64,000 bases of DNA. Origin: an uncultured Rhodospirillaceae bacterium. Lineage in GTDB: Bacteria; Pseudomonadota; Alphaproteobacteria; UBA9219. Within the stretch, counting starts at the first letter, position 1; every line of letters starts with the position of its first letter. Made by a program: the position numbers and the translations under genes. Location: positions 129,839-193,838 of the forward strand of contig CAYMGM010000001.1 of NCBI GenBank assembly GCA_964390005.1, read 5' to 3'. Below, piece by piece: positions 29,487 to 60,334 of this stretch. The notes under the pieces were generated by a model, which was not told where the DNA came from, ran no database searches, and was given only the letters and a program-made list of their open reading frames with translations.

Positions 29487-29615
29487 CTAATTTGGTAGAG
29501 GATACGAACCGGAGAAGGAGGTTTGACCAAACAGTCTGGGAGACTGTTTGGCGCGAGGCGAAGCCGAGATCTGAGCAGCGCGAAGATCAAAAACAGACTT
29601 TAAGTTTGTTTTTGC

Positions 29616-39128: not shown

Positions 39129-39134
39129 AGCAAG

Positions 39135-45744: not shown

Positions 45745-45930
45745 TTAAGCGGTGATATCCACTTGTGATCCGCGGCCCGTTTCGGCGGGTGGCGGCGTCG
45801 GCTCTTCTTTAACTTCGACAGGCTCAGGCCTCGGTTGCTGTTGAGAAGCCGTTTCTTGCTGACGGCGGATTGTCTCAAGCTGGCCCGAGACGGCCCCTTG
45901 TGAAGAGCTAATATTCGATAGTCCAGCCAT
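45745..45930 (-). CDS. small YjfB-like (putative motility) protein
   Basis: 61 aa. The MAGLSNISSS N-terminus, a Gln-rich middle and a GSQVDITA C-terminus resemble the YjfB family pattern. It has its own terminator. Low confidence. Confidence 0.35.
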   Translation of the reverse strand: MAGLSNISSSQGAVSGQLETIRRQQETASQQQPRPEPVEVKEEPTPPPAETGRGSQVDITA

Positions 45931-46178: not shown

Positions 46179-47285
46179 ATGAAAGTCGCCGTCGTTCACG
46201 AATGGCTGACCACAAAAGCGGGATCAGAATCTGTCATTGAACAAATACTGACCTTGTATCCGGAAGCCGATTTGTTTGTTTTAGTTGATTTTTTGCCCGA
46301 AGCGGATCGCGCTTTTCTGGCTGGCCACAGGATCAAAACATCTTTCATCCAGAACTTACCTTTTGCGCACAAAAAATACCGTTCTTATTTGCCGCTGATG
46401 CCGCTGGCGGTTGAGCAGTTTGATTTGTCGGGCTACGACCTTGTTATCAGCTCGTCGCATGCGGTGGCCAAAGGGGTGCTGACAGGCCCCGATCAAGTTC
46501 ATATTTCCTATGTTCACAGTCCCATTCGCTATGCGTGGGATCTTCAACACATCTATTTGCGCGAGTCAGGGCTTACCAAAGGCCTGCGCGGTATCTTGGC
46601 TAAATTGATTTTACATTATATGCGCCTGTGGGATTGCCGTACCGCTTGTGGCGTCGATCAGTTTGTCGCGAACTCAAACTACATCGCGCGGCGGATTAAA
46701 AAGGTCTATGGCAGGTCGGCGCAAGTTGTTTATCCGCCGGTCCATTTAGATAAGTATATTGCTGGCACGCAGCCGCGCGAAGATTTTTATTTGGCGGTGT
46801 CGCGCTTTGTGCCTTACAAAAAGATGTCGTTGATCGTCGAAGCTTTCACGCGCTTGCCTGATCGGCGCTTGATCGTCATCGGCGACGGCCCAGATTTGAA
46901 AAGCGCAAAAGAGCAAGCGAGCGCAAACGTGACCTTTCTTGGCTACCAAGCGCAAGATGTTGTGATCGATCACATGCAACGCGCCAAAGCCTTTGTCTTT
47001 GCGGCCGAAGAAGATTTTGGCATCGCCCCGGTCGAGGCGCAAGGCTGCGGCACGCCCGTGATAGCCTTTGGCCGCGGCGGCGCAACCGAAACGGTCGTTG
47101 ATGGTCAAACAGGCGTGTTGTTTCCCGAGCAAACGCCTGAATCCCTGATCGAGGCGATTAAAAAGTTTGAGGTCCTCGCGCCGCAACTCAAGGCGACAAC
47201 CATCCGTGAAAATGCCGAGCGTTTCAGCGTCGCACGTTTCAAGGAAGGCATTCAAAAGATCGTCGACGAAGCGATGAAAGCGTAA
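46179..47285 (+). CDS. glycosyltransferase family 4
   Basis: GT-B fold. The C-terminal EDFGIAPVEAQGCGTPVIA motif (E-x7-E). The start is placed at MKVAVVHEWL, whereas the ORF track gives 46104. Confidence 0.8.
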   Translation: MKVAVVHEWLTTKAGSESVIEQILTLYPEADLFVLVDFLPEADRAFLAGHRIKTSFIQNLPFAHKKYRSYLPLMPLAVEQFDLSGYDLVISSSHAVAKGVLTGPDQVHISYVHSPIRYAWDLQHIYLRESGLTKGLRGILAKLILHYMRLWDCRTACGVDQFVANSNYIARRIKKVYGRSAQVVYPPVHLDKYIAGTQPREDFYLAVSRFVPYKKMSLIVEAFTRLPDRRLIVIGDGPDLKSAKEQASANVTFLGYQAQDVVIDHMQRAKAFVFAAEEDFGIAPVEAQGCGTPVIAFGRGGATETVVDGQTGVLFPEQTPESLIEAIKKFEVLAPQLKATTIRENAERFSVARFKEGIQKIVDEAMKA

Positions 47286-47294
47286 CGGCCCCTT

Positions 47295-48380
47295 ATGCGT
47301 CTTCCCCTTTACATCAATGCGCGTTTTCTTGGCAAACCGATCACGGGCACGCAGCGTTTTGCGCATGAGATTATAGCTGCCCTCGATAAAAAAATAGGTG
47401 AGGGCGCACAAGTTTTCTCGAAGGTCGTGTTACTGGCGCCTTCTGGGACGCCGCAGCCGACGGGGCTTGAGCCTATTGGCTTTCAAACATGCGGCCATCT
47501 ACAAGGCCATTTGTGGGAGCAATGGGATTTGTGGCGTGCCAGCCATGACGGCCTGCTGCTCAGCCTGACGAATAGCGGCCCCGTGTGCCACCCGCGGCAT
47601 TTGGTCGTCATTCATGATGCGTTGGTTTACCGGTTGCCCGAAAACTACGCTTGGGCCTATCGCTTGTTTCACCAGAATCTTGGGCGTCTTTTGGCGCGTC
47701 GCGCGCGCGTTGGCACGGTCTCGGCCTTTTCGGCCTCTGAACTAGCCGCCGTCTTTCACGGCCAATCATCGGACTACCCCGTTTTTTACGATGGCTTCGA
47801 TCACATTCTGCGCCTGACGGAAGAGCCCGCCATCCTTGATCGCCTGAACCTGCGCGGTAAACGCTTTTTCCTTTTTGTCGGCTCGCACGTTCCCAACAAA
47901 AACCTAGCCCGCGCGATCCAAGCGTTTATGGCGCTGAAAGACGACACGCTTTCATTTGTGATTGTCGGCTCAACACAATCAAAGGTTTTTGCCGCGACGC
48001 AACTTCAACTACCACCGACGGTCTTGATGCCGGGGCGCTTGACGGATGGCGAGATCGTCGCGCTTTATCGTCATGCTTATGCGCTGGTTTTTCCAAGCTT
48101 GTACGAAGGTTTTGGTATTCCGCCGTTGGAAGCGTTGACGTTGGGCTGCCCCGTGATTGCCTCGCGCATCGCGCCGGTCCAAGAAGTGTGCGGCGAGGCT
48201 GCCAAATATTTTGATCCGTTAGATACCGCGGATATGGCGGCGCAACTGCGCGCGAGTCTTAATGATCCCGCCTGGCGCACAGCCTGTGTGGCAAAGGGTA
48301 AGCAGCGCTTGCCAAACTTCACATGGCGCGCAAGCGCCGAGAAAATATGGCAAGAATTGCTATTCATGAAGAAGGATTGA
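47295..48380 (+). CDS. glycosyltransferase family 4
   Basis: EGFGIPPLEALTLGCPVIAS, the GT4 E-x7-E motif. 361 aa. Confidence 0.8.
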   Translation: MRLPLYINARFLGKPITGTQRFAHEIIAALDKKIGEGAQVFSKVVLLAPSGTPQPTGLEPIGFQTCGHLQGHLWEQWDLWRASHDGLLLSLTNSGPVCHPRHLVVIHDALVYRLPENYAWAYRLFHQNLGRLLARRARVGTVSAFSASELAAVFHGQSSDYPVFYDGFDHILRLTEEPAILDRLNLRGKRFFLFVGSHVPNKNLARAIQAFMALKDDTLSFVIVGSTQSKVFAATQLQLPPTVLMPGRLTDGEIVALYRHAYALVFPSLYEGFGIPPLEALTLGCPVIASRIAPVQEVCGEAAKYFDPLDTADMAAQLRASLNDPAWRTACVAKGKQRLPNFTWRASAEKIWQELLFMKKD

Positions 48381-48385
48381 TGGTG

Positions 48386-49435
48386 ATGAAAAAAGAATTC
48401 ACTGGTGCCCGGTATGGTTTTATTGATGCCATTCGCGGGATAGCGGCCTTGCTCGTGATGCTACAACACTCGCTTTATTCCAGTGGCTTGCTTGGTGACA
48501 TCCATGGCCCTTTAACAGGCTTTATTCCAACGATGCTTGAGTTGGGCGAGACGGGGGTCGTTGCCTTTTTTCTTGTCTCAGGGTTTGTTATTCCGCTCAG
48601 TTTAGAAAAAACGGCAAACTTTAAAATGTTCTGGATACACCGTATTTTGCGTATTTATCCGCTGTATCTGTGCGTCTATTTTGTCAGTTTGGTTTTGCAC
48701 CTTGGAACTTTTGATATCTCAGGCTTTTCAGCGCACGTCGTCAATTTTCTATCGCATCTATTAATGATCCAGGAATATGTCAAACAACCTAATCTTGTCG
48801 GCGGGTCGTGGACGCTTTCGATTGAAATGATCTGGTATATCGGTCTTTCAGTTTTATTCTTGTTGGCCTTGAATAAAAAGCCGCGTTTGCTTGTCGCTTT
48901 AGCCGTTGCCGCTTCATTTTTGGCATGTGTCGTTTGCGCGTTTGGGCCTCACCTTCCTATGGGAAGACTTTCAATGCTGGTTTGTTGTGTGTTGGGTTTC
49001 GTTTGTTACCGTTATGGGAAAAGCGATTTATCCAGCCGCGAATTTTGCTTTTTGGCAGGGCTTTTAATCATTGCGATTGTTACAAACCTGATGACTGGAT
49101 TTTTGTTGTTTCCATCGGCATATCCCACAGCCAGTTTTGCAATGGTTCGAGGTTCTTGGTCTTTAGGTATTTTGATTTTTTTTATACCTTTTCTCTTCCG
49201 TCAATCGTCCATCTGGGACAACAGCCTTTTGTCTTTCCTTGGGAAAATAAGTTATTCGATCTATTTGGGGCACGGTGTTGTCTTGCACCTGCTTGAAGAT
49301 AGCCCGCTAACAGGGTGGTGGTTTATTGCCGCTGTTTTTGTATCGACAATTCTTGTTGCGAGTCTGTCCTACCGCTATATTGAGCAACCGCCCATTCAAT
49401 TCGGTAAAAAACTGAACTCTTTAAGGCAACTCTAG
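48386..49435 (+). CDS. acyltransferase family 3 membrane O-acyltransferase
   Basis: About 10 TM helices. The N-terminal FIDAIRGIAALLVMLQH motif is typical of acyltransferase-3 (OatA/OafA-like). Lower GC than the flanking genes. Confidence 0.75.
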   Translation: MKKEFTGARYGFIDAIRGIAALLVMLQHSLYSSGLLGDIHGPLTGFIPTMLELGETGVVAFFLVSGFVIPLSLEKTANFKMFWIHRILRIYPLYLCVYFVSLVLHLGTFDISGFSAHVVNFLSHLLMIQEYVKQPNLVGGSWTLSIEMIWYIGLSVLFLLALNKKPRLLVALAVAASFLACVVCAFGPHLPMGRLSMLVCCVLGFVCYRYGKSDLSSREFCFLAGLLIIAIVTNLMTGFLLFPSAYPTASFAMVRGSWSLGILIFFIPFLFRQSSIWDNSLLSFLGKISYSIYLGHGVVLHLLEDSPLTGWWFIAAVFVSTILVASLSYRYIEQPPIQFGKKLNSLRQL

Positions 49436-49556
49436 GTAAAATCGGAGTCTATGACGTCGGCAGGGCGCGGCCATAGCCAAGCGCGGTTACGTGGCGTTCG
49501 CTTTATAAATAAGGAACGATGACGGATATTTTTCTTCGATCGTTTTTTCTATATCT

Positions 49557-50492
49557 CTAACTTTCAAAGGAAGCTTTTTCTAAGATTTTGCTTGGGTGGC
49601 CTTTACCGCAAAGCTTGTCGCCTATGGCCATAAAATTTCCGCGTAAGCGCCCCCAATAATCGATATCGGGCCGCGGCGGACGAATGGATTTGATAATATT
49701 GGCCGCAAAGTTTCGTGCAATTTGCCGCAAAGCGGCTTTGGTGGGCATTGTCCCTTTTCCCATCAAATAAAGAGGATTGGCAACTTGGGAATACCCGAAC
49801 CGAAGGCCACTTGTTCGTCCCCCTGAGACCCCCATGTGAACGCCGCGGCAGTTTGGCGTTCGTACGACAGGGCCAAAGGCCAAGGCTTGGCCGGTATAGT
49901 CATAGTCTTCTTGCCAGCTATAAAGCGGAAGGTTTTCATCAAAACGACATTGCCGGATAACGGTATGGTTAAAAGCCATGTTGCAGCCATAGGCACAATC
50001 GACAAAAGATTCTTTTGTTGTATTGGCCCAGTGCTTTTCAGGAACGATGGTCCCGGCCAGATAGTTTGTCGCTTGTTCTTCGCTAAGGCCGCCAGTCATG
50101 ACGCCGTCAGCTAAGACACGTCCTGTCAGGCCGACGATATCGCCTTTGGCAAAACGATCAGCAGCCTTTTCGAGCCAGTCGTCGGCAGGGCGAAAATCGT
50201 CGTCAAAAAAAGCGCAAAAGAAGTCGCCTTTTGTCTCATCCAGAAAGCCGCGTTGACGTAAGGTCTGAATCCCATAATTGCGCTGGCATGTCAGACCGGC
50301 AACAGGAGAAAGAACGATGTTTCCAGCAAGATGCTTAAAAGCGGGATGGTCGCGGCATTCGAAGACATCCCTTTCTTCGCTGCCAACGACAACGACGCCA
50401 TGCGGAGCAAGTGTCTGGCGTTGTAGGTAATCCAGCAGGGTGCCCGTCTCTTTGGCACGTCCTTTGGTCGCGATAATAACGAAAGCGCGCAT
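49557..50492 (-). CDS. glycosyltransferase (GT-A fold, family 2-like)
   Basis: 311 aa. The N-terminus MRAFVIIATKGRAKE resembles GT-A, and FFDDDF is a DxD-like motif. Confidence 0.55.
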   Translation of the reverse strand: MRAFVIIATKGRAKETGTLLDYLQRQTLAPHGVVVVGSEERDVFECRDHPAFKHLAGNIVLSPVAGLTCQRNYGIQTLRQRGFLDETKGDFFCAFFDDDFRPADDWLEKAADRFAKGDIVGLTGRVLADGVMTGGLSEEQATNYLAGTIVPEKHWANTTKESFVDCAYGCNMAFNHTVIRQCRFDENLPLYSWQEDYDYTGQALAFGPVVRTPNCRGVHMGVSGGRTSGLRFGYSQVANPLYLMGKGTMPTKAALRQIARNFAANIIKSIRPPRPDIDYWGRLRGNFMAIGDKLCGKGHPSKILEKASFES

Positions 50493-50636
50493 AGTGCCGT
50501 CTCGATCTTTTGTTTCAGTATTTCTTATGTTATGAACAGGATCATCCGAGATGGCAAGTTCTCACTTTTCGAATGAAGATAAAAAGCGTGTCTTCAAAGA
50601 TTTTGGTTAATATTTTGTCCTTCGCTTAGACAAAAA

Positions 50637-52175
50637 TTGTGGATAATACAGATGCAACCCGAAATAAAACCTAAATTATCGCATCAAGTCGCGAAGGCAG
50701 GCAGCCTGACAGTCTTGGGGAAATTGTTGGGACGCGGGCTCGATTTTATCACGTTGATCGTCTTATCTCACATATTAACGCCCAGCGATTTTGGCTTAAC
50801 GGCCCTTGCGATGACGTCAGTGACAATTGCTGAAAGCGTGACATCGTTACCGTTGACGGCGGTTTTAGTTCGAGAAGAGGCGCCAACCAAGGCCATGTTT
50901 GATACGGCCTTTACCTTGGCTTTTCTCCGCGGGTGCGTTCTGGCTGCTTTTCTAAGCGGCATTGCTTTTGTCATGGCACAGATTTATGGCGAGCCTCGCT
51001 TGACGCCCTTGGTCTGCGCCTTGTCGTTCGCGCCGATTTTTCGAGGCCTTCAAAGTCCGCATATGGTGCGCTTTGTAAAGGACATGGATTTTAGACGTGA
51101 TGCCTCGCTAGAGATTGTGGGGAAAGCGGGGGCTTTGATCGTTGCATCGACGCTTGCCTTGTCAACACGTAGCTATTGGTCGATTGCGATGGCGACAATA
51201 ACGACGCCATTTATTATGAATGTTCTTTCATATTTTTATGCGCCCTATAAACCCGCCTTTAGCCTAGCCGAATGGCCGCTTTTTCGCGCGATCGTCGGGT
51301 GGAACAGTTTGACGCAGCTTATTCTCTCATTAACCTGGCAATCTGATAGGTTGTTGCTTGGCTACTTTATCCCGAAGGCTAATCTTGGTCGCTATACAAT
51401 GGCCAACGATTTGTCCAGCATAGGGATTCAGGCTCTTGTCGTTCCATTGGATCAGCCGCTTCTCGTGGCTTTTTCCAAACGTTTTGATGATGCAAAAGAA
51501 ACGCTTGCCGCAACATATTTAAAAAGCACAAATGCAGTCCTGACAATAGCCGGCCCCTTTTTTCTTGGTCTTTCTCTATTAGCACAACCCATTGTACGTC
51601 TTGTGCTCGGCGAAGCGTGGAGCGAAACCGGACGGTGGTTGCACTGGATCGCACTTTTGAACCTTTCGTTGCTTCCTTTTTATCATATGAACAGCTTGGC
51701 TCTCGCCGTTGATCAGGCCCGTATGACAACAAGGCGTACCTTTGGCGAATTTCTTGTTCAAATACCAGTTGTCTTATGGGGAAGTAGATATTTGGGTGTC
51801 ACGGGGGCTCTGATCGGGCGCAGCATAACGCGCGCCGTTTCTATTCTTATCAGCCTTATAACAGTGCGTGAATTGATTGACGTTTCGATAAAAGGTCAAC
51901 TGATGGCCATGCATCGAACCATGATTGCTTTGTTGACGATGAGCGGCGTTCTTCTTTTAACGCGTGATTTTGTAGCGACGTCGTCAACAGTCATGATGGT
52001 TTTGTCGCTTGGCGTCGTTGCGGTTATCTCGGGCCTCTCATATTATTTGTGCCTTTACGCTTTATGGTTGGCAGAGGGGCGACCAGACGGTTGTGAGAAA
52101 ATTGCGGTTTCGCGGTTGTTAAGTCTTGTCTCTTATCTTTCGAGCAAATGTCTTAAAAAGCGCAAATTATTATAA
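50637..52175 (+). CDS. polysaccharide biosynthesis flippase (Wzx/MOP superfamily)
   Basis: 512 aa and about 12-14 TM helices. The N-terminus (KAGSLTVLGKLLGRGLDFITLIVLSHIL) is typical of the MOP exporter family. Confidence 0.75.
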   Translation: MWIIQMQPEIKPKLSHQVAKAGSLTVLGKLLGRGLDFITLIVLSHILTPSDFGLTALAMTSVTIAESVTSLPLTAVLVREEAPTKAMFDTAFTLAFLRGCVLAAFLSGIAFVMAQIYGEPRLTPLVCALSFAPIFRGLQSPHMVRFVKDMDFRRDASLEIVGKAGALIVASTLALSTRSYWSIAMATITTPFIMNVLSYFYAPYKPAFSLAEWPLFRAIVGWNSLTQLILSLTWQSDRLLLGYFIPKANLGRYTMANDLSSIGIQALVVPLDQPLLVAFSKRFDDAKETLAATYLKSTNAVLTIAGPFFLGLSLLAQPIVRLVLGEAWSETGRWLHWIALLNLSLLPFYHMNSLALAVDQARMTTRRTFGEFLVQIPVVLWGSRYLGVTGALIGRSITRAVSILISLITVRELIDVSIKGQLMAMHRTMIALLTMSGVLLLTRDFVATSSTVMMVLSLGVVAVISGLSYYLCLYALWLAEGRPDGCEKIAVSRLLSLVSYLSSKCLKKRKLL

Positions 52176-53098
52176 CCCCACATCAGGATCAGTCGACCGG
52201 TGATCGCTGGCGACGAAGAAAAAGACCCTTTTAAAATATGAACTATAGCTTGTAGAGATTGTCGAAGATCAAATCTTTTCAAAGCCTGATTGCGCCGAAA
52301 AACGCGCAGTAAAATGTAGCCTTCTTTGGTCGCCGGAGATAGGCGAAGCTGACGAAGCTTGTTCTCAAGCAAGTACTTGTTCACCTCGATAATTTCCGAT
52401 GAAACGGCGCTGCGTTCTTGCTCTTCTGTGCGCGTCATTGAAATGTTTGCCCCGTGCAGACGATATTTCAGAACAGGAACATTGATGTCGTGGATAAGGC
52501 CGTAGCGACTGATGCGAATGTACATGTCATAATCTTCGGCATGAGGATAGGCTGATGAATACCCTCCCGCTTTTTTCAAAGCATCGGTGCGCAGCATGAC
52601 AAGGGGGTGAAGAGCAGTTTTGATAATCGGCGGAAACACAGTCAAATCTGTCTGTTCATGCTGTTGTCGCGGACTTTTAAAGTCGGCCTTTGAGGCAGGT
52701 TGGGTTTGTCCGTTTGCGTCAATCGTGATCGGCTTTCCGCCGACAAGAACGACATCGGGGTGTTCTTTTAGATAAGAAACTTGGACGGCGAACCTGTCTG
52801 GCAGTGAAATATCGTCAGCATCCATGCGAGCCGTAAAGGTTCCGCGTGCGATGGCCAAGCCAGCATTTAGCGCTGCGACGATACCGGCGTTTTCCTGTGA
52901 TAAAACGCGAATGCGTTTGTCCCGCTTTTGATAGTCATCGATAATTTTATCTGAACCGTCCGTACTTCCATCGTTAACAATAATGAGTTCAAAATCATCA
53001 AGCGATTGATCAAGAATAGATTGAATGCTTTCGGCTAAATAGGCCTGACCATTATAAACAGGAAGCAAGCATGAGACAGTGATCGTGGGCGATGTCAT
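52133..53098 (-). CDS. glycosyltransferase family 2
   Basis: VSCLLPVYNGQAYLAESIQSILDQS...LIIVNDGSTDGS...RMDADDIS are the classic GT2 motifs. The start is placed at MTSPTITVS, whereas the ORF track gives 53263. Confidence 0.8.
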   Translation of the reverse strand: MTSPTITVSCLLPVYNGQAYLAESIQSILDQSLDDFELIIVNDGSTDGSDKIIDDYQKRDKRIRVLSQENAGIVAALNAGLAIARGTFTARMDADDISLPDRFAVQVSYLKEHPDVVLVGGKPITIDANGQTQPASKADFKSPRQQHEQTDLTVFPPIIKTALHPLVMLRTDALKKAGGYSSAYPHAEDYDMYIRISRYGLIHDINVPVLKYRLHGANISMTRTEEQERSAVSSEIIEVNKYLLENKLRQLRLSPATKEGYILLRVFRRNQALKRFDLRQSLQAIVHILKGSFSSSPAITGRLILMWGYNNLRFLRHLLER

Positions 53099-53241
53099 GA
53101 CAAAGATCGTTAATGTTTTTGCTCTCTTGGAGGGCGAAGATAACAAATAATATATTGCACTTAGCCATTGAATAGGCAATCTTGTTTTGTGGATTTGAAG
53201 GGATTTTATATTCCTTCTTTTTATTGTAAGGGAGTAAGCAG

Positions 53242-54186
53242 ATGAATATGCAGGATTTGTCAATGCAATTGGACCATTGCACAGATCTATTAGAAGGGCC
53301 TGTCGTTTATCTTGATTATCCCGTTCATAATAATATTGGCGATATCCTCATTTGGCTTGGGGCGCAGAAACTATTAAAAAGAAATCATATACAAGTGCTG
53401 GGCTCTTTTGAGCTGCGCTTAGGTTTCTATGCGAAACATTTATTGTCGTCTTGTACGACGATATGTATGCATGGGGGAGGGAATCTTGGTGATCTCTATC
53501 CGCGGCACCAGTCTTTTCGTGAAAAGATCATTCAAAAATATCCGGATAAAAAAATTGTCATTTTTCCTCAGACTGCCTGTTTTAGTAGTGCAGAGGCTCT
53601 ACAGAAAACAGCCGACATCTTTTTAGCGCACAAAAATCTCCATATTTTTCTAAGAGATCAAAACTCGTTTCAAACGTTGCAAGAGAAGGGAATTCCGAAC
53701 CTCCATCTTTCTCCTGATACAGCCCATGCTCTTTGGCCAATACGCCTTGGCGCGTTTTATCAAAAGGACAGCAAGCTCTATTTTTTCAGGCGCGACAAGG
53801 AAAAGACGCAAACGCCTTTTGATTGCGATGAGAAAGATGCATTCGATTGGAAAGACTGTATTCGTGGGTTCGACGAAGCTTTATTTAATTTTGGTCTTCA
53901 GTATCATCGTGTCGATGCGCGTTTGGCGGGCAGTCTTTTGAAGTCGAGTTGCCTATGGAATTATGTCTCGCAACGTCTTCTCGCCTCTGCTGCCGGGGTT
54001 TATGCAAACCACGAAACCGTCATTACAAACCGCCTGCATGGGATGATTTTTGCGGCGCTCACCGGAACAAAATGCATAGCCTTTGATAATTCGTACGGTA
54101 AGCTGTCTAGCTATTACGACCTTTGGCTTAAAGACATAGATAACCTTAGCTTTATCCAATCAGGTGGGGTTCAACCGCGTCTTTGA
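53242..54186 (+). CDS. polysaccharide pyruvyl transferase family protein
   Basis: NIGDILIW, GGGNLGD and NRLHGMIFAALTGTKCIAFDNSYGK match the CsaB/WcaK pyruvyl-transferase family. 314 aa. Low GC. Confidence 0.7.
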   Translation: MNMQDLSMQLDHCTDLLEGPVVYLDYPVHNNIGDILIWLGAQKLLKRNHIQVLGSFELRLGFYAKHLLSSCTTICMHGGGNLGDLYPRHQSFREKIIQKYPDKKIVIFPQTACFSSAEALQKTADIFLAHKNLHIFLRDQNSFQTLQEKGIPNLHLSPDTAHALWPIRLGAFYQKDSKLYFFRRDKEKTQTPFDCDEKDAFDWKDCIRGFDEALFNFGLQYHRVDARLAGSLLKSSCLWNYVSQRLLASAAGVYANHETVITNRLHGMIFAALTGTKCIAFDNSYGKLSSYYDLWLKDIDNLSFIQSGGVQPRL

Positions 54187-55624
54187 TCGTTGGGGCCAAA
54201 TGGTTTTATCTCTCTTAGCTTTTCTGATCATCTTGTGCGGACTGGCCTCGGATGGGCTTGTGGTGCGTCTTTTGTTTATTATGCCATCGTTTGCTGCGAT
54301 GGCCGTTCTTCCGCCATCTTGGCTGGGGGGCGTCAATATAACGCCAGGCAGTATGACTGCATTGATCTTTTCCTTGCGTTACATGACAAAGCCAGGCGCG
54401 TTTCATGGTGCCGTCGCCGCTTGCTTGAATAGAAAAAAACTGGGCTGGCTTTTCGTCTTTTACCTGGTCGCTTTTGCCGGAGCCCTTTTTCTTCCCCGGT
54501 TGTTCGCGGGGCGCATTCTAACTTATCAGCTCAGTACGGCAAAACTCAGCTATGTGATGCCAACAGGAACAAATTTCACACAAGCCTTGTATCTATTTTT
54601 GTCAGTTATGACGGCCATCATGGTATCCGTGACGATTACAAAACGTCCAAAATTCGGAGATTTGTTGTTGAAAGGGTTTTATGCTGGCGGTTTGGCCGTT
54701 ATTGGGACAGGGCTTCTTGATATTACGGCCAACCTGCTTGGACAAGGGGCTTTGCTGAAGGCTTTTTACACAGCCGAATATGGGTATTCAGCCGGGGCCA
54801 TTAATGGGTCACGCCGTGTCTTAGGGTTGACGCCTGAGCCTTCTACCTTTGGTTCGCACGCTGTCGCTTTTGCGGCGTTGCTTCTTTTCTTCGGACCGGC
54901 GTATGCAACAAAAATAGAAAAGCGCAACGCGTTTCTTTGTGGCCTTGGGTGCGCGGTAATGGCGTTTCTTTCGCTTTCATCGACAGCGTATGCCGCGATG
55001 TCTGTCGCTTTAGGTTTGTTCGCCCTTTACAGTGTTAAAGGTTATTCGAGCGATGGCAAAATTATTCGGCAATCCGTCGCCAACAAGCTGCTTATGGGGC
55101 TCTTTGTTTTTGTGTTGGTGGGGCTGTTCGTTTTGAGCTTCAGTGGCGCGTTCGACTATATGATGAATATGTTCGATACGCTGCTTTTTAAAAAGCAGTA
55201 CACCACGTCATATTTAGAAAGATCAAGTTGGACGACGACGGGGCTAGAAGCTTTTTTTCAGTCATGGGGGGTGGGCGTTGGCGTCGGATCTGTCCTTACC
55301 TCTAATTTTTTTGTTAATATTCTTGCAAGTACTGGCATTTTGGGCGCGATGCTATTTGCTCTTTTCTTGATGTCCTTTTTCACGGCGCGCGTCCCCATGA
55401 ACAATGGGCGAGCATCGATTTTTATCGGTGCGGCTAAAAGAAGTTATCTGCCCATTATGGTTGGCGCCTTTTTTGCGGGAACGACACCTGATTTTGGCAT
55501 TGTTCCCGCTGTGCTGTTCGGCTTGGTTTCTGGCTTTATAACCCCTATTGGTGGAGATTCTCATCGGTCTTTGCCGTTGCAAAAAAACAAAACTTATTTG
55601 CGAAAACCGTTAGAGAGAAAATAG
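54164..55624 (+). CDS. polytopic membrane protein, Wzy-type polymerase or O-antigen-ligase-like
   Basis: 486 aa with more than 10 TM helices and a larger loop. It lies in a polysaccharide locus between the pyruvyl transferase and GT genes. The family is not confirmed. Confidence 0.45.
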   Translation: MGFNRVFDRWGQMVLSLLAFLIILCGLASDGLVVRLLFIMPSFAAMAVLPPSWLGGVNITPGSMTALIFSLRYMTKPGAFHGAVAACLNRKKLGWLFVFYLVAFAGALFLPRLFAGRILTYQLSTAKLSYVMPTGTNFTQALYLFLSVMTAIMVSVTITKRPKFGDLLLKGFYAGGLAVIGTGLLDITANLLGQGALLKAFYTAEYGYSAGAINGSRRVLGLTPEPSTFGSHAVAFAALLLFFGPAYATKIEKRNAFLCGLGCAVMAFLSLSSTAYAAMSVALGLFALYSVKGYSSDGKIIRQSVANKLLMGLFVFVLVGLFVLSFSGAFDYMMNMFDTLLFKKQYTTSYLERSSWTTTGLEAFFQSWGVGVGVGSVLTSNFFVNILASTGILGAMLFALFLMSFFTARVPMNNGRASIFIGAAKRSYLPIMVGAFFAGTTPDFGIVPAVLFGLVSGFITPIGGDSHRSLPLQKNKTYLRKPLERK

Positions 55625-55644
55625 GCGTTCTTGATTTCTAGAGA

Positions 55645-55920
55645 TCAAGCAAAAACCCCGACGACGGACATTCCTACCTCTGGCGAAACAATAGCTATCG
55701 TCGTGGGGAGGTCGTTTGAAAAATCACTGTCGCTGCGAATGCAAGTGTAATAAAGACTTGGATCGCCAGCTCCTGGCAACAGGCTTTCGTTGCCGTTTTC
55801 GTCCGTTATGGTTTGTTCGGCGCGACCCTTTTGGATCGGGATATAATTTTTAAAACTTGCCACGAAGTTTTCTAAAAGAGCTTCATTATCACAAGATAAA
55901 TATGTGTCGATATAAGCCAT
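55645..55920 (-). CDS. hypothetical protein (AT-rich, phage-like triplet member)
   Basis: 91 aa. It is the last of three tightly packed minus-strand ORFs with GC clearly below the surrounding genes. Confidence 0.3.
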   Translation of the reverse strand: MAYIDTYLSCDNEALLENFVASFKNYIPIQKGRAEQTITDENGNESLLPGAGDPSLYYTCIRSDSDFSNDLPTTIAIVSPEVGMSVVGVFA

Positions 55921-55927
55921 CTTTCAC

Positions 55928-56911
55928 CTAAACGCTTTGGATTCTTTTAAGACAGAGTCTGTTTAAAACAGAAGGATCAACGGTATAGGATCCACTGCTG
56001 ACGCTTATGTCTTGGGTGCTGTCATCGTCAAACGTGCAGCGTATCGTTGAAATACCCGATGGGATTGTAAAGGAAAGCTGATCTGTGGCACGTGTGACGG
56101 CGCTTCCATTTGTGGGAATGTATGATGTGGCAACAGAGCCAACTTCATACTGCTCTCCCCATATATTTATGTTACCTGATGATCCTAGATATGACGGTAA
56201 AGAGCCGTTGGTATCTAAATTATTTGTCAGGGCGTTATAGAAAGTAGAATGGTTTCCTGAAGTGTTTTCTTTGGCCTTTACTGAAATTCTATAATTTGAA
56301 TTTCCTACCGCTTCAATGCTTGGTACAGCAACTGTAAAAGCGTTGTGGCCGACCACACCGGCACTAACATCAAAATTTGCATAATAAAGTTCAGTGTACG
56401 ACCCTGCATATGCTTTCATTTGCAGAATATACTCAGAACCCGCTCTTGCAAACACGCTCATGATTATATCATTGTAGTTCATAGCTATAAGCGGCGGTTT
56501 TGCATAGTGAACTGAAGACCCTGTTCCTTCATTAAGATTTTTGAAATAGGTCATCCCGTCTGGAGAAAGCAGAGACGAATCTGACGCGGTAACGCCAGAA
56601 AGGGCCCAATTCGTAGGAGGATTTGAGTTTGTAAATAAGTTTGTTCTTTGAGGCTCAATCAGTAACCCGCTAGCTTCCCACAATCCCGTCGAGGTATTGT
56701 AGTCATAATTAAATCTAGGCGTATCTACCGAAGCGGTCCGCATGACGCCGCTACTGTCGAAATAGGTTCCCGTGCTGGCGCGAGAGAAGCGACAATCGGT
56801 CGGCAGGATTCCGCTTGTAAAGGACAGATCCAACGCAGGCGGTTGGGGCGCGGCGCTCTTATGCGTCTTGTCAAGTAAAAGAAGCATCGCCATATTAAAC
56901 CGCGCGGACAA
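55928..56911 (-). CDS. phage tail-fibre-like protein
   Basis: 327 aa, Ser/Thr/Asn/Gly-rich. The LIEPQRTNLFTNSN and YIPTNGSAVTRATDQLSF motifs resemble conserved segments of phage tail-fibre / host-specificity proteins. No signal peptide. Confidence 0.4.
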   Translation of the reverse strand: MSARFNMAMLLLLDKTHKSAAPQPPALDLSFTSGILPTDCRFSRASTGTYFDSSGVMRTASVDTPRFNYDYNTSTGLWEASGLLIEPQRTNLFTNSNPPTNWALSGVTASDSSLLSPDGMTYFKNLNEGTGSSVHYAKPPLIAMNYNDIIMSVFARAGSEYILQMKAYAGSYTELYYANFDVSAGVVGHNAFTVAVPSIEAVGNSNYRISVKAKENTSGNHSTFYNALTNNLDTNGSLPSYLGSSGNINIWGEQYEVGSVATSYIPTNGSAVTRATDQLSFTIPSGISTIRCTFDDDSTQDISVSSGSYTVDPSVLNRLCLKRIQSV

Positions 56912-57260
56912 TCAATTTCAGGGTCGAAGCTGTCGCCTGCAAGACGGGGCTTGCTGCCGTACCTGACCTGATTTTCAGGTACTGCAAGGACGCAAAGCCT
57001 TTAGGATCAAGCATGATGCAACTAGAGGCGGTGGGAACGGCTGTAATTTCGCTACCGTCCTGGTCAATAAGGCTGTACCAGTTGGTGCCATTATCAGGGG
57101 ACATTTGAAAAGTCAAAGAAGCGTTTGTCCAGTTGGCGGGAATGGCAACGCCAAACAAACGCAATCCGCCAAGATCGATCGTGTTTGTTATGGATGCGCT
57201 GGCGTTGATCGTAACGGGAAGCGCTTCCCAAGCGGAGACGCAGGTGTCTTTCAGTGACAT
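56895..57260 (-). CDS. hypothetical phage-structural-like protein
   Basis: About 121 aa from MSLKDTCVS. It overlaps the tail-fibre-like gene start by 17 bp. AT-rich. Confidence 0.3.
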   Translation of the reverse strand: MSLKDTCVSAWEALPVTINASASITNTIDLGGLRLFGVAIPANWTNASLTFQMSPDNGTNWYSLIDQDGSEITAVPTASSCIMLDPKGFASLQYLKIRSGTAASPVLQATASTLKLIVRAV

Positions 57261-57466
57261 TTGAAATCCTTTCCAAGCATAAAAAAAGCGGCCCCTGAAA
57301 AGGGCCGCGTGCCGCGAGATATTTTTGTTTTTGTTCCTGTAAGTGTTCCGAATGCGCGTCAAAGCAAAAAAGGCGCAAGGAACCTGTCTTTAGTCAATAC
57401 GCGAAAGCGCGGATCTCGTCAAGGGAAAAATCCTACATTTAGACGAATGTTCAGAAAAATTCTACT

Positions 57467-58612
57467 TTAAACGAGTGCCTTGGCATAAATGGCTTGCTGA
57501 TGATCGGGGGCGCATGTTTCCCATCCGGCTTTGGCTATCGCGTCGAAAAAACGTGGGTTCTCATACAATTGCCGCATAGCTTTGGCGGTCGCATCAATGT
57601 CGGGATCGGCCCATGTGACTGTGCCATAGATACCGCTTTGATCCTTCATGGTAACAAGCTGATAGGGAACAAGAAGAGCATTCTCAGGCGACATAAAGTC
57701 CATATTGCCAGACCAAGCCGTTGCAATCGTCGCAAGACCAGCGATACGGGCCTCAAGAAGAGGAAGGCCAAAACCTTCGGCGCGGTGTAGCGACACATAG
57801 ACATGGGCATCGGTCATGATTTTTTCGATTTCGGCGCGCGTCAAGGTTTCGCGGATAAGATGGATGCGATCATCGCCAGCAACGGATTCGATGAATTGCG
57901 CTATTTCAGGTATTGTTGATTGGCCTTGTAACTTCACGACAAGGCGAGCGTTGTCTTCTTTTGAAAACGCTTTTTGAAAAGCCGCGACGACGGCAGCTGG
58001 ATTCTTTCGCGTGAGGCCTGATCGTGCATCGGCCATGGTCAAAAAGCATAAAGGCTCTTGATCGGCATGCCATTGACGGGGAGACGGGCCGCGATCCATG
58101 CGGACATGAGGCACAACGCGGATCGGATCGGCGTAAAGTTTGCCAAGTCCAAGGGCCGCAAAACGGCTCGGCGTCCAAATTTCATCCCAAATGCCTGTAT
58201 AGACGGGCCATCCGGCAGGCGGATCGGGCAGTTCCCAAGCAAAGTATCCAATACGCCTTTGGTTTTTTAAAACCTTTCGCAAAGGCCAGGCCAGTTGCAG
58301 AAACTCGGGGGCTGCGCAGTGAAAGATAAAAATGCCATCCTTTGGACAATCAATCTGTTTAAAGGGGTTGCGAATAGCTGACGAAATATCGACTTTACGA
58401 ACCTTATAGCCCAACCGTTCAAAAGCAATTGCATGATAGTTGGCCCCATTGGTTAATCCGTTTTGGACCGCAAAACGGCAAACGATGTTAATGGGGGTAT
58501 CAAGTGTTAGGGGAAGTGCGGCGGGGCTTGGCCGTTGTAGCTTTGACAAGGCGATCCGATTAAAAATGGAAAAATAGAGGCCCTTGGCCCATTTTTTTAA
58601 TTGTGACATCAA
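57467..58612 (-). CDS. glycosyltransferase family 4
   Basis: RAEGFGLPLLEARIAGLATIAT is the E-x7-E motif. 381 aa. Confidence 0.7.
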   Translation of the reverse strand: MMSQLKKWAKGLYFSIFNRIALSKLQRPSPAALPLTLDTPINIVCRFAVQNGLTNGANYHAIAFERLGYKVRKVDISSAIRNPFKQIDCPKDGIFIFHCAAPEFLQLAWPLRKVLKNQRRIGYFAWELPDPPAGWPVYTGIWDEIWTPSRFAALGLGKLYADPIRVVPHVRMDRGPSPRQWHADQEPLCFLTMADARSGLTRKNPAAVVAAFQKAFSKEDNARLVVKLQGQSTIPEIAQFIESVAGDDRIHLIRETLTRAEIEKIMTDAHVYVSLHRAEGFGLPLLEARIAGLATIATAWSGNMDFMSPENALLVPYQLVTMKDQSGIYGTVTWADPDIDATAKAMRQLYENPRFFDAIAKAGWETCAPDHQQAIYAKALV

Positions 58613-58712
58613 ATAAGTCCATTTCTATGGTTTTGTTAGCGCTTTAGACGCCTTGACCTTGGCGTTATCTTGGCACAGCATAAAGAAAAAGCCAATTCGG
58701 AAAGGCCTCACA

Positions 58713-60041
58713 ATGAAAACGACAGTTCAACGTATTTCAATTTACGCTTTTTTTGTTTTTAGTCTTTTGAGCGCCAGTTCTGTTTGGGCAGCCGAGCCCG
58801 TGCGCGCTCTTAGCGCCGATGCTTTTTTGAATTCTCTCGGGGTCATTACGCATGTGGCGCAAGGGTATAATCCCCGCCTTTATATTGACCCCCTGCGTTT
58901 TCTTGGTGTCCGACAAATTCGCGATGGTTCCAAAAATCTTTCAGGCATCGTCACGTTGCATGAGAAAACGGGGGTGCGCGTTGCCCTTATCGGGGCAAAG
59001 ATTCCAGAAGTGATTAGTTCAGCCCGTACGTTGGCGGCGCGGGATATGTTGCTTGCGATTGAAGGCCCGAACGAACCGAACAATTTTCCTATCACTTATC
59101 AGAATAGCGTTGGTGGAGGAAAGACGGGCTCATGGGCACCGGTCGCTTTTTATCAGCGCGACCTGTATGCAGCCGTCAAAGCGGATCCTGTTTTAAAGGA
59201 TTATCCCGTTTTTCATGTATCGGAAGGCGGCGCGGAAATAGACAATGTTGGCTTGCAGTTTTTGACGATACCTGAAAACGCGGGCACTTTATTGCCAGCA
59301 GGAACTATTTTTGCCGATTATGCGAACGCGCATAACTATGTTTGTGGAAACGGCAATCGTTATGATGACAATCAAGCATGGAATGCGGCCGATCCTGTTT
59401 TAAACGCACGTTGGGATGGGCTGTATGGCTTGTATGGCCGGACGTGGCTTCGCCATTATACAGGTTATACAAATGAACAGTTGATGACGTTACCGCGCGT
59501 TACGACAGAGACGGGATGGGGAACGGGCCCTCGGGGGGCGAGCGAAGACGTGCAAGGCAAAGTTCTTGTGAATACCTATTTGGCTCAGTTCAAACGCGGC
59601 TGGACTTATACCTTTGTTTATGAACTTGGCGAAGGTGAAGGCGGCGGTGGCAATTATGGGCTGTTCCATAAAGATTGGACGCCAAAATTAGCTGCGACCT
59701 ATATTCACAACATGACGTCGATTTTAGCCGATACAAAACCGGTCTTGAAGCCAGGAAGTTTGGCTTACAGCTTATCCAATCAACCCGCGACGGTTCACGA
59801 TCTTCTTTTGCAAAAAAGCGATGGGGTCTTTTATTTGGTTGTTTGGGGCGAAAAAGTCTCAGGCAGCGACGAGGTACGCGTTACTTTGGATAAGCCCGCG
59901 GCTGTTATCGATGTTTTTGATGTTACGCTGAGCGACGGTCCGCAGCAGCGTCTTAAGAACCAGTCTGAGGTTCCCTTAACGCTATCGGATCACGCGCTGA
60001 TTTTAAAGATTTCGAACAGCAAGAGCACGCCGAGCAAATAA
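58713..60041 (+). CDS. secreted glycoside-hydrolase-like protein
   Basis: Signal peptide MKTTVQRISIYAFFVFSLLSASSVWA. TIM-barrel-like conserved acidic positions (LAIEGPNEPNN, TTETGWG) are reminiscent of GH clan A enzymes. Confidence 0.45.
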   Translation: MKTTVQRISIYAFFVFSLLSASSVWAAEPVRALSADAFLNSLGVITHVAQGYNPRLYIDPLRFLGVRQIRDGSKNLSGIVTLHEKTGVRVALIGAKIPEVISSARTLAARDMLLAIEGPNEPNNFPITYQNSVGGGKTGSWAPVAFYQRDLYAAVKADPVLKDYPVFHVSEGGAEIDNVGLQFLTIPENAGTLLPAGTIFADYANAHNYVCGNGNRYDDNQAWNAADPVLNARWDGLYGLYGRTWLRHYTGYTNEQLMTLPRVTTETGWGTGPRGASEDVQGKVLVNTYLAQFKRGWTYTFVYELGEGEGGGGNYGLFHKDWTPKLAATYIHNMTSILADTKPVLKPGSLAYSLSNQPATVHDLLLQKSDGVFYLVVWGEKVSGSDEVRVTLDKPAAVIDVFDVTLSDGPQQRLKNQSEVPLTLSDHALILKISNSKSTPSK

Positions 60042-60042
60042 A

Positions 60043-60306
60043 CAGGCGCATACAGCAAAGTTGCAGAGCTAAAAAGAATGACCGCGGTGCAAAACCGCAC
60101 TGAGCAAGCAAACAGGCGCATACAGTTAAGTTGCAGGGCTTAAAAGAATGGCTGCGGTGCCACGCCGCACTGAGCAAGCAAACAGGCGCATACAGTTAAG
60201 TTGCAGAGCTTAAAAGAATGGCTGCGGTGCCACCGCACTGAGCAAGCAAACAGGCGCATACAGTTAAGTTGCAGGGCTTGAAAGAATGGCCGCGGCGCCA
60301 CGCCGC
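60043..60306. repeat. about 3.8 tandem copies of a 68-70-bp repeat
   Basis: The units begin with CAGGCGCATACAG at 60043, 60113, 60183 and 60251. They are more than 90% identical, and the last unit is truncated by the tRNA-derived repeat. Confidence 0.9.
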
Positions 60307-60334
60307 TGGTTGGGGCGGGAGGGATCGAACCTCC
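60307..60334 (-). repeat. 28-bp direct repeat of the tRNA-Gln 3' end (partial tRNA copy, att-like)
   Basis: TGGTTGGGGCGGGAGGGATCGAACCTCC is identical to 60391-60418. It is followed by the hairpin TGTCGGCC-TTT-GGCCGACA. No 5' half of a tRNA is present. Confidence 0.85.

Follow-up and report, generated by a model that had tools for sequence, protein, structure and literature searches.

Gene content of the surface-polysaccharide cluster

The stretch of DNA analysed here (64 kb, hereafter the window) contains, at positions 46179–60041, a real lower-GC, lineage-variable surface-polysaccharide gene cluster, with sdh genes on one side and a tRNA-Gln gene on the other. Two plus-strand GT4 glycosyltransferase genes come first, at 46179–47285 (368 aa; Pfam Glycos_transf_1, 1.2e-29, and Glyco_transf_4; the 368-aa gene call also occurs in L068) and 47295–48380 (361 aa; Glycos_transf_1, 5.5e-27), followed on the same strand by an Acyl_transf_3 membrane O-acyltransferase at 48386–49435 (349 aa; PF01757, 5.6e-30; 43.8% GC). 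A minus-strand gene at 49557–50492 (311 aa) encodes a GT2/GT-A-type glycosyltransferase with a weak match to Glycos_transf_2 (8.8e-6; 26.2 bits against a Pfam cut-off of 23.3) and weak NCBIfam matches to HpsN and EpsD. Beyond it lie a Wzx-type MOP flippase at 50652–52175 (plus strand, 507 aa; Pfam Polysacc_synt_3, 9.1e-50; NCBIfam MOP flippase, 1.4e-31), a strong GT2 glycosyltransferase at 52133–53098 (minus strand, 321 aa; Glycos_transf_2, 1.3e-34) and a polysaccharide pyruvyl transferase at 53242–54186 (plus strand, 314 aa; PS_pyruv_trans, 1.5e-32; 43.2% GC). The plus-strand gene at 54200–55624 (474 aa, about nine hydrophobic segments) is a candidate Wzy-like polymerase: its match to Wzy_C is weak (E 6e-4; 20.1 bits, under the Pfam cut-off of 31.7) and the NCBIfam search gave no match, while a protein 50% identical to it occupies the equivalent position in L073. 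A third GT4 gene, at 57467–58609 (minus strand, 380 aa; Glycos_transf_1, 3.2e-9; GT4-conflict, 1.5e-8), also matches the PHROG 2170 glycosyltransferase (4.7e-17).

At the right end of the cluster, the plus-strand gene at 58713–60041 (442 aa) encodes a protein with a signal peptide and a clan GH-A-like fold resembling PslG, comprising the barrel, a C-terminal beta-sandwich and two catalytic glutamates. PslG is a GH39 hydrolase from the Psl exopolysaccharide operon of Pseudomonas aeruginosa. In contrast to PslG, the protein has no Pfam or NCBIfam match that would place it in GH39; it is 13% identical to PslG in sequence, finds no sequence or profile match in the PDB at E up to 1, and belongs to a separate, very conserved family of its own (>2800 members at ~60% identity). 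The secreted glycoside hydrolase described in an earlier note on this DNA corresponds to this exported protein of PslG-like fold.

Pfam and NCBIfam content supports a heteropolysaccharide locus of Wzx/Wzy type with genes for O-acyl and pyruvyl modification. Three GT4 and two GT2-type genes supply the several glycosyltransferases expected for a repeat unit, and the flippase is of the MOP/PST family expected of a Wzx/Wzy-dependent cluster. The mix of GT4 and GT2 genes with Wzx, Wzy-like, acyltransferase and pyruvyl transferase genes, the GC below that of the genome and the mosaic structure between strains all resemble Wzx/Wzy O-antigen, capsule and EPS clusters, among which the colanic acid and succinoglycan types are examples with acetyl and pyruvyl decorations. 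In contrast to such clusters, the locus lacks an initiating phosphoglycosyl transferase, chain-length regulator, Wza and sugar-nucleotide genes, and carries virus-derived structural genes. No initiating phosphoglycosyl transferase, Wzc/Wzz, Wza or WaaL was found among the ORFs scanned across the window, so gene content does not resolve the earlier assignment to ‘O-antigen or EPS’, and no sugar-nucleotide genes were found in the locus or the window. The missing initiating transferase and chain-length and export genes may be encoded elsewhere, by analogy with R. capsulatus, in which the initiating transferase and wza/wzb/wzc also lie elsewhere (PMC10218006, Table 1). The earlier note's account of the gene content was confirmed in part, with corrections to counts and GC: it had listed four GT4 genes, of which three were found, and a Wzy/ligase-like polymerase, here a candidate below the Pfam cut-off, while its acyltransferase-3, Wzx flippase and pyruvyl transferase were recovered, as were its GT2 and GT-A glycosyltransferases, one strong and one weak (26 bits).

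Base composition and lineage variability

Cluster genes average 48.3 ± 3.6% GC (GC3 49.5%) versus 55.1 ± 2.7% (GC3 60.5%) in 36 backbone genes (Mann–Whitney p ~4e-6). Over 48386–60041 the GC content is 47.0%, while the lowest equally long stretch within 1–45580 is not under 52.2%. The lower GC previously claimed for the cluster, as opposed to a uniform composition, is thus borne out by calculation, although the flanks are at 52.5–56.8% GC rather than the ~60% given before. The first two GT4 genes have backbone-like GC3 (0.57–0.61).

Comparison with a sister lineage (sample SRR23004076, which includes L186) shows the cluster to be a mosaic of 69–97% identity beside sdh flank DNA that is 95.7% identical, with an SdhA protein identity of 99.6%. 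At the amino acid level, the second GT4 (98.8%, L186), the GT2 at 52133–53098 (96%, L186) and the third GT4 (92.6%, L187) are highly similar, while Wzx (81%) and the Wzy candidate (75%) are less so. In L186 the place of the Acyl_transf_3 gene is taken by a PS_pyruv_trans gene encoding 433 aa, a second pyruvyl transferase, and in the sister lineage a different acyltransferase is found downstream of the third GT4. The mosaic and the acyltransferase swap indicate that the locus varies by recombination, in agreement with the strain variability claimed earlier; strict conservation was not seen.

The tRNA-Gln boundary

The right boundary of the low-GC span is a minus-strand tRNA-Gln (UUG) gene at 60391–60465 (ARAGORN; Rfam tRNA, 64.9 bits), and 28 nt of its 3′ end are repeated exactly, in the manner of an integration scar, at 60307–60334 on the same strand (0 expected by chance). 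The two copies start 84 bp from each other and enclose 56 bp; a third copy was not found in the window with up to three mismatches allowed, including on the sdh side. Adjacent to the repeat, at 60024–60306, are four tandem copies of a ~70-bp unit (80–96% identity to a reference copy), each with a small hairpin that is weakly terminator-like on the minus strand; its 29-nt core occurs three times and is absent from the rest of the window, and the units have no Rfam match. No integrase, transposase or other mobility gene was found in the cluster, its flanks or the window.

These features bear on the earlier proposal that all 14 kb of the cluster arrived in a single step, as an integrative island at tRNA-Gln. 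As in tRNA-linked genomic islands, a tRNA 3′ end adjoins the cluster, its 3′ segment is duplicated as an att-like repeat, GC is below that of the backbone and content varies between strains; two related loci described below (L075 and L080) likewise have tRNA genes next to their base-gene side, and an integrase lies near a third (L077). In contrast to such islands, both repeat copies lie at the tRNA side and, since they enclose 56 bp, they do not bound the ~14-kb cluster; the window has no integrase and the first two GT4 genes have backbone GC. Furthermore, the locus occupies the same position in the sister lineage, and its segment-wise divergence and cassette swap suggest repeated recombination within a resident locus. 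One-step acquisition is therefore improbable; of the earlier interpretation, the variable Wzx/Wzy locus holds and the tRNA-Gln and repeat pair are real, but acquisition as a unit is not upheld.

A head-spike module within the cluster

The most informative feature of the locus is a phage/GTA-derived head-spike module of three minus-strand genes at 55645–57260, absent from the earlier note, which lies between the Wzy-like gene and the third GT4 gene and is thus adjacent to the predicted receptor genes. These virus-derived genes probably encode capsid spikes with which a gene-transfer particle would recognise the same sugar coat. In order of transcription they encode o121 (56895–57260, 121 aa), a jelly-roll protein and putative capsid-vertex base for the fibre, o321 (55928–56893, 321 aa), a homologue of the RcGTA head-spike fibre GhsB/Rcc01080, and o91 (55645–55920, 91 aa).

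The fibre provides the clearest homology. In addition to PHROG 5939, a tail protein (8e-49), the best PDB sequence match of o321 is 6tb9 ‘Head spike fiber Rcc01080’ (phmmer, chain 6tb9_F3, E 1.7e-22), with residues 19–287 aligning to 28–289 of 325 in Rcc01080, and it is 30.7% identical to the RcapMu tail fibre. The N and C ends of the family are conserved and the centre is hypervariable. For example, identity to the sister-lineage fibre is 66% over the N part and 70% over the C part but drops to 21% in the centre, the central domain having been replaced in that lineage along with polysaccharide genes. The N-terminus reads MAMLLLLD; an M-x-x-(L/I/F)4-5 run is common to close relatives and LGLGL occurs in remoter ones, and in the RcGTA fibre an IALGLGLGL stretch binds the base pentamer (PMC7296036). 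Neither o121 nor its family profile matched Rcc01079/GhsA, and hhalign against RcapMu57, a Rcc01079 homologue (E 1.2e-5), gave a probability of 0.08; the jelly-roll fold of o121 is like that described for the base (PMC7296036), which is a resemblance only. The third protein, o91, is also unrelated to Rcc01079/GhsA and has no Pfam, PHROG or PDB match, but phage-like clusters L086, L087 and L161–L163 carry homologues (34–40% identity) behind their fibre gene, and polysaccharide locus L075 has another. A second strain keeps the module ORFs intact and differs in them by 11 synonymous and 9 nonsynonymous changes (dN/dS 0.23–0.32; p 0.002 against neutrality), a substitution pattern indicating that the module genes are functional.

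Some fibre homologues have Laminin_G_3 or CBM_4_9 matches, and the module sits among polysaccharide genes beside the PslG-like hydrolase, as also in L073. The three proteins could thus be cellular carbohydrate-binding proteins, for example in polysaccharide anchoring or processing, with no particle involved. However, no signal peptide or transmembrane segment was found in o121, o321 or o91, which fits release by lysis rather than secreted lectins; both families occur in phage head modules, and the promoter described below is common to structural clusters. A purely cellular role is therefore very improbable.

Related particle clusters and a common promoter motif

The module order of base, fibre and o91 is colinear with capsid, p132, base, fibre, o91 and connector in L086, L087 and L161–L163, and L071 carries homologues of base and fibre (51% and 43% identity) inside an RcGTA-like cluster. 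Just upstream of each of these RcGTA-like clusters is a DUF6456 gene, the annotation given to GafA homologues (PMC9638019, PMC9765227). In other structural clusters (L164/L165, L166, L170, L171, L173 and L174) the base/fibre slot is empty, as it would be if those genomes encoded the module at another site. Conversely, in four other alphaproteobacterial genomes the base gene abuts Wzx/Wzy loci at four distinct chromosomal sites (L073, L075, L077 and L080), with the fibre gene kept beside it in three of the four.

A promoter-like motif, TTGAC-N18-TATTGAC, lies upstream of o121 at 57393–57422 on the minus strand and is the sole match in the window (0.04 expected by chance). One copy precedes the base gene in each of the same four loci, and one lies ahead of TerL in 12 phage-like clusters (the 12 having upstream DNA), so that the motif is common to GafA-linked structural clusters; in alignment A5, TTGAC and TATTGAC are invariant in 16/16 sequences. 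It was not found among published GafA or GafY sites. Between the motif and o121 is an intrinsic-terminator-like hairpin (57288–57308, minus strand; 9-bp stem with 7 GC pairs, then T7), which ends 28 nt before the o121 ATG and is the strongest terminator-like site in 55.4–60.7 kb; similar hairpins with a T-run, read by eye, precede the base genes of L073 and L080. GafA/GafYZ-controlled accessory GTA loci in R. capsulatus and Caulobacter crescentus are similar in that scattered accessory structural genes are driven by the main-cluster activator, and GafYZ also overcomes terminators (PMC11150451, PMC9638019). Likewise, the module follows a common promoter motif and a leader terminator, and DUF6456 genes accompany the related clusters. 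In contrast to those accessory loci, the DUF6456 gene of the related clusters is directly upstream of the structural genes.

This recurrence weighs on the possibility that the locus is an ordinary variable polysaccharide island holding an inert prophage remnant, in which a phage once integrated at tRNA-Gln and decayed, leaving three structural genes, and perhaps the adjacent GT4, now without a role for the cell. The tRNA-Gln gene 3 kb away with its duplicated 28-nt 3′ end, the low regional GC, and the match of the neighbouring GT4 to a phage ‘moron’ glycosyltransferase PHROG would all be consistent with such a remnant, and other homologues of rcc01079/rcc01080 in R. capsulatus sit in prophages (PMC5026251). 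However, no other phage gene flanks the module, its ORFs are unbroken and synonymous changes in them are in excess, and the base family is 44–66% conserved across MAGs. Four other genomes, moreover, have the base gene beside polysaccharide loci at unrelated sites, preceded by a conserved promoter of its own and usually accompanied by the fibre gene. An inert remnant is thus unlikely.

The related clusters may be true GTAs or prophages, and the module might serve a resident temperate phage as an in-trans host-range cassette for an inducible L071-type prophage. The related clusters are classed as viral by IMG/VR and carry lysozyme genes, and some have CI-like repressor genes or divergent XRE-S24 or XRE-CinA regulators resembling phage repressors. 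In contrast, the clusters seen hold structural and lysis genes only, with no integrase or replication genes in the 4–6 kb upstream, on contigs of up to 771 kb, and are paired with a GafA-family gene. Moreover, a self-transmitting phage with spike genes in trans would lose its host range on leaving the genome. Service to a temperate phage is thus unlikely.

A proposed linked spike and receptor cassette

The best reading, with slightly better than even confidence, is a linked receptor and spike cassette in a recombining polysaccharide locus, as in Rhodobacter capsulatus: a chromosomal Wzx/Wzy-type locus for a predicted acylated, pyruvylated surface heteropolysaccharide, carrying a module that stems from the head-decoration segment of RcGTA-like particle clusters. 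A GafA-family activator would turn on particle genes that we infer to lie elsewhere in the genome, and the module would be co-expressed with them from the same TTGAC-N18-TATTGAC promoter, its transcription having to pass the leader terminator. The jelly-roll protein o121 would then dock at capsid vertices, o321 would be anchored to it via its hydrophobic N-terminus, and the variable central lectin-like domain of the fibre would bind the polysaccharide of the neighbouring genes on recipient cells. Recombination would maintain the variability of the locus between lineages, and physical linkage would keep spike and receptor matched as it recombines. What is observed is the homology, the synteny, the common promoter motif, the recurrence in other genomes and the joint variation of fibre and polysaccharide genes; the particle cluster in this genome, its co-expression with the module and the binding of this polysaccharide by the fibre are inferred, with indirect support for such a co-regulated cluster from the motif in common with DUF6456-linked clusters of related genomes. 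Several observations count against the cassette: no capsid, terminase, DUF6456 or tail genes were found in the 64-kb window, which also lacks the initiating transferase and the export genes for the polysaccharide, none of the base genes has a TTAA-N7-TTAA CtrA box upstream, some related clusters carry CI-like repressor genes, and downstream of TATTGAC the motif is less conserved in the window than at other loci. The leader terminator could alternatively just end the transcript of the upstream GT4 gene, keeping the module silent.

The closest known system is that of R. capsulatus, in which the head-spike genes ghsA/ghsB (rcc01079–rcc01080) lie immediately upstream of the capsule receptor genes (rcc01081–rcc01086) and are co-regulated with them (PMC5026251, PMC10218006). 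Similarly, o321 is a sequence homologue of Rcc01080 of the same size with a hydrophobic N-terminus, the fibre gene directly follows a small beta-rich gene, and the two sit within or next to a capsule-type locus that varies between strains, at a distance from the putative main structural cluster (PMC5026251, PMC10218006). In contrast to R. capsulatus, the upstream protein has 121 aa and no detectable relation to the 84-aa Rcc01079, MxMLLLL replaces LGLGLGL as the putative N-terminal anchor, the module includes a third gene of 91 aa, and the predicted regulation draws on the common promoter motif. The host also differs in being a rarely sampled alphaproteobacterium, whose SdhC reaches no more than 50% identity to any near-full-length match in the species-level genome set, with one partial match at 68%.

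Gene content and composition of the polysaccharide cluster

The 13 genes at 46179–60041 include two GT4 glycosyltransferases (46179–47285 and 47295–48380, both +), an Acyl_transf_3 protein (48386–49435, +), a weakly matching GT2/GT-A glycosyltransferase (49557–50492, −), a Polysacc_synt_3/MOP flippase (50652–52175, +), a clear GT2 (52133–53098, −), a pyruvyl transferase (53242–54186, +) and a third GT4 (57467–58609, −), all assigned by Pfam and NCBIfam. The polysaccharide cluster recognised in the earlier note, with its GT4 and GT2 genes, acyltransferase, flippase and pyruvyl transferase, is thus borne out with corrections, its count of four GT4 genes being one too high. Assignment of the Wzy-like gene is weak: the match to Wzy_C (E 6e-4) falls short of the curated cut-off. 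Its protein has approximately nine hydrophobic segments. No initiating transferase, Wzc/Wzz or Wza was found in the 64-kb window, the remainder of which consists of housekeeping genes (sdhCDAB, ddl, a Mur ligase, mfd, recG, tpiA and L31). Taken alone, the polysaccharide cluster is ordinary; the head-spike module embedded in it is the more interesting content.

Cluster genes averaged 48.3% GC (49.5% GC3) versus 55.1% (60.5% GC3) for the 36 backbone genes (Mann–Whitney p ~4e-6), and the stretch 48386–60041 is 47.0% GC, while equally long stretches within 1–45580 never fall below 52.2%. In GC the first two GT4 genes resemble the backbone. The cluster therefore does lie below its surroundings as had been claimed, but the flanks are 52.5–56.8% GC and not 60%.

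Integration at the neighbouring tRNA-Gln gene (60391–60465, −), also proposed previously, is unsupported. An exact 28-nt copy of the tRNA 3′ end occurs at 60307–60334, but the two copies are only 84 bp apart (start to start), there is no third copy in the window, and neither an integrase nor a transposase is present in the cluster or the remainder of the window. The two copies look like an integration scar rather than the borders of the 14-kb cluster. Four tandem units of ~70 bp, each with a small hairpin, occupy 60024–60306, starting within the 3′ end of the PslG-like gene, whose last few codons they supply, and reaching to the partial tRNA copy. The unit has no Rfam match and is found nowhere else in the window, and the tRNA was the sole Rfam match over 45–61.5 kb. 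In the Caulobacter gene-transfer agent (GTA) cluster, tandem repeats serve as a strong terminator (PMC11150451).

A putative head-spike module within the cluster

Three tightly packed minus-strand ORFs absent from the earlier note separate the Wzy-like gene from the third GT4: o121 (56895–57260), o321 (55928–56893) and o91 (55645–55920). The product of o321 matches PHROG 5939 ‘tail protein’ (8e-49) as well as the tail-fibre genes of phages such as Rhodobacter phage RcapMu, and its best match among solved structures is Rcc01080 (GhsB), the head-spike fibre of the Rhodobacter capsulatus GTA (RcGTA), over nearly its full length (E 1.7e-22; 321 versus 325 aa). o121 has no detectable relationship to the 84-aa RcGTA spike base Rcc01079 (GhsA) or to the RcapMu homolog of that base, and we therefore call it a positional analogue of the base, and probably also a functional one, rather than placing it in the GhsA family. 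GhsA homology was not found for o91 either. Searches of PHROGs, Pfam and PDB sequences returned nothing for o121 or o91, tblastn of o121 against GenBank phages gave no match, and all three proteins lack both a signal peptide and membrane segments. Residues 53–61 of o121 carry a conserved FQMSPDxGxxW motif that is similar to one Asp-box (SxDxGxTW) from beta-propellers of the sialidase type and accounts for weak, sub-threshold matches to sialidases.

Variation between strains and lineages

The organism is rare in public data, with exact-protein look-ups matching a single NCBI contig plus a few SRA assemblies. Scanning species-level genomes with SdhC recovered only distant relatives (≤50% identity over near-full-length matches, and one partial match at 68%, L065), and yielded no syntenic neighbours usable for comparing island-present with island-absent genomes. 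In a second strain (SRR9674389, L158) the spike module is 99% identical to that of the window, differing by 11 synonymous and 9 nonsynonymous changes (dN/dS 0.23–0.32; p 0.002 against neutrality, from small counts). This excess of synonymous change, small as the counts are, indicates functional genes. One of the two main rival readings, that the module is an inert prophage remnant, appears unlikely.

A sister lineage (SRR23004076) has an sdh flank 95.7% identical to the window and an SdhA protein 99.6% identical (L188), while its polysaccharide cluster (L186, L187) is a mosaic in which identity is 94.8% at 47.9–48.4 kb, 71–80% across the weak GT2 and Wzx genes, 95–97% across the GT2 and pyruvyl transferase genes, 69–75% in the Wzy-like gene and 88% in the third GT4. 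In place of the Acyl_transf_3 gene (48386–49435) this lineage encodes a 433-aa pyruvyl transferase (L186, 590–1891), and an unrelated acyltransferase lies downstream of its third GT4; the exchange of an O-acyltransferase for a second pyruvyl transferase predicts a switch in polysaccharide decoration. Mosaic identity (69–97% overall) and gene replacement together show that the locus is variable, as the earlier note had proposed, and the pattern is that of segment-wise recombination within a resident locus, not of one-step insertion at the tRNA.

The fibres are conserved at both ends and hypervariable in the centre. Between the window and the sister lineage, identity is 66% over residues 1–95, 21% over residues 96–250 and 70% over residues 251–321, and the central 600 nt of the gene share no nucleotide similarity. 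The fibre centre and the polysaccharide genes have thus changed jointly, in lineages whose backbones are nearly identical.

Recurrence beside polysaccharide loci

In other Alphaproteobacteria the base gene directly adjoins a Wzx/Wzy polysaccharide locus, at four unrelated sites on the chromosome. These read PslG-like gene, base, fibre, Wzy-like gene and GT4 (L073); base, GT4, GT2, GT4, Wzy, GH16 and exosortase, with an o91 homolog (L075); Ugd, base and fibre, epimerase, pyruvyl transferase, Wzx, GT2 and Wzy (L077); and base and fibre, GH10, Wzx, GT4, Wzy, GT4, WecG and exosortase (L080). In L075 and L080 the side with the base gene is bordered by tRNA genes. At L077 (1–7989), the polysaccharide and spike locus of GCA_053527515.1 adjoins a tyrosine integrase and BrxR, SNF2 and DUF1156 genes, which look like a BREX-type defence system.

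Related structural clusters and a shared promoter motif

Homologs of o121 (51%) and o321 (43%) occur together in a chromosomal phage-like cluster (L071), and a metagenome scan with the capsid of this cluster identified 26 such clusters, carried by contigs as long as 771 kb. Their gene order is TerL, portal, protease, HK97 capsid, p132, a variable slot, connector, head-closure protein, homologs of RcGTA g12–g15 (DUF2460, phiJL001 Gp84 type, NlpC/P60, and Phage-tail_3 with Rcc01698_C) and lysozyme. The variable slot holds base, fibre and o91 homolog, exactly the order of the window module, in L086, L087 and L161–L163, the base only in L169 and the o91 homolog only in L172, and is empty in L164/L165, L166, L170, L171, L173 and L174. 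In L071 the HCP and the g12 homolog are directly adjacent, no major-tail or tape-measure gene being called in between; other RcGTA-like clusters have 1–2 kb at this position. Tetranucleotide composition was compared to assign one of the structural clusters of metagenome 3300027796 to the L080 polysaccharide locus, but the correlations of 0.78–0.84 do not discriminate.

A DUF6456 gene lies just ahead of every cluster having upstream DNA (29.6–38.1 bits versus a cut-off of 26.3), and the GTA activator GafA and its homologs carry this annotation (PMC9638019, PMC9765227). Chromosomal RcGTA-like clusters with such a GafA-family gene directly upstream are widespread (metagenome contigs L160–L174 and L181, and also L071 and L084–L087), and some also carry a divergent XRE-S24 or XRE-CinA regulator.

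The motif TTGAC-N18-TATTGAC follows an AT-rich stretch, continues downstream as CCACGGCG..TGCGTCC, and stands ahead of TerL in each of the 12 clusters having upstream DNA. Its single copy in the window (0.04 expected by chance) lies upstream of o121 at 57393–57422 (−), and each of the four other chromosomal loci has one copy ahead of its base gene; an additional match in an unrelated sdh locus (L032) is probably due to chance. CtrA boxes, sought by regular expression as TTAA-N7-TTAA and as half-site variants, were not found upstream of the base genes. In the window, a strong terminator hairpin (57288–57308) follows the motif and precedes the start codon of o121, so any transcript reaching the module must read through it. 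Anti-termination of the GafZ type, known from the Caulobacter GTA (PMC11150451), may operate here.

Comparison with the R. capsulatus gene-transfer agent

In R. capsulatus, ghsA and ghsB lie directly upstream of, and are co-regulated with, the capsule receptor genes rcc01081–rcc01086, a strain lacking these capsule genes is unable to bind RcGTA, the initiating transferase and wza/wzb/wzc are encoded elsewhere, and the fibre N-terminus (IALGLGLGL) plugs into the base pentamer (PMC5026251, PMC10218006, PMC7296036). No rcc01080 homolog was found in other Rhodobacterales by Hynes et al. (PMC5026251). Similarly, the window has a GhsB homolog with a hydrophobic N-terminus (MAMLLLL) adjoining a variable capsule-type locus, its spike genes lying apart from a main cluster. 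It differs in its lineage, its non-homologous base candidate, its third gene and a promoter link to particle genes that is drawn from comparative evidence only.

On this evidence we lean towards the module providing a GafA-regulated, GTA-like particle, whose other genes would lie elsewhere in the genome, with spikes that bind the capsule. That it instead serves a true prophage, the other main rival, seems improbable. More tentatively, the GafA-family-controlled RcGTA-like clusters of a lineage of uncultured Alphaproteobacteria may repeatedly have moved their spike genes from the structural cluster into the host's variable polysaccharide locus with the particle promoter kept, spike and polysaccharide being inherited, diversified and exchanged as one cassette.

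R. capsulatus offers the sole worked example of how GTAs keep their delivery directed at kin. The window locus and its relatives have the same spike/capsule linkage in a distant uncultured lineage, with a different base protein and a common promoter tying the module to particle genes. If the more tentative reading is correct, gene transfer would have kin recognition built in, a device known until now only from that one species and here using a base family absent from PHROGs and solved-structure sequences. Because two lineages with 95.7% identical flanks have swapped the fibre centre and parts of the polysaccharide pathway, a natural experiment is available, and with these added features receptor/ligand co-evolution is directly testable. 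The locus also flags an undescribed capsid-associated protein family, and the promoter motif could serve to find scattered accessory genes of such elements.

Other features of the window

Just upstream of the sdh operon, a four-gene run of backbone GC (35426–39776) encodes an AMP-binding enzyme, a LuxE-like acyl-protein synthetase, a LuxC-like acyl-CoA reductase and a PglD-type hexapeptide acetyltransferase, and resembles a set for sugar N-acylation or lipid modification. The polysaccharide deacetylase encoded at 11741–12580 (−) also has a DUF3473 domain, a pairing typical of PEP-CTERM/exosortase EPS systems; exosortase EpsH genes terminate the related polysaccharide loci L075 and L080. Two SAICAR synthetase paralogs (10759–11763, +; 13799–14596, −) lie <4 kb apart. 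A second, milder low-GC patch (24651–30466; 44–52% GC) surrounds tRNA-Pro (29370–29446); within it lie the gene for a 416-aa pentapeptide-repeat protein and two ORFs that match nothing in Pfam. Between sdhC and the first GT4, a 61-aa proline-/glutamine-rich ORF (45745–45930, −), which has no family match, is called in every strain; its sister-lineage copy is 100% conserved, versus 93% identity for SdhC.
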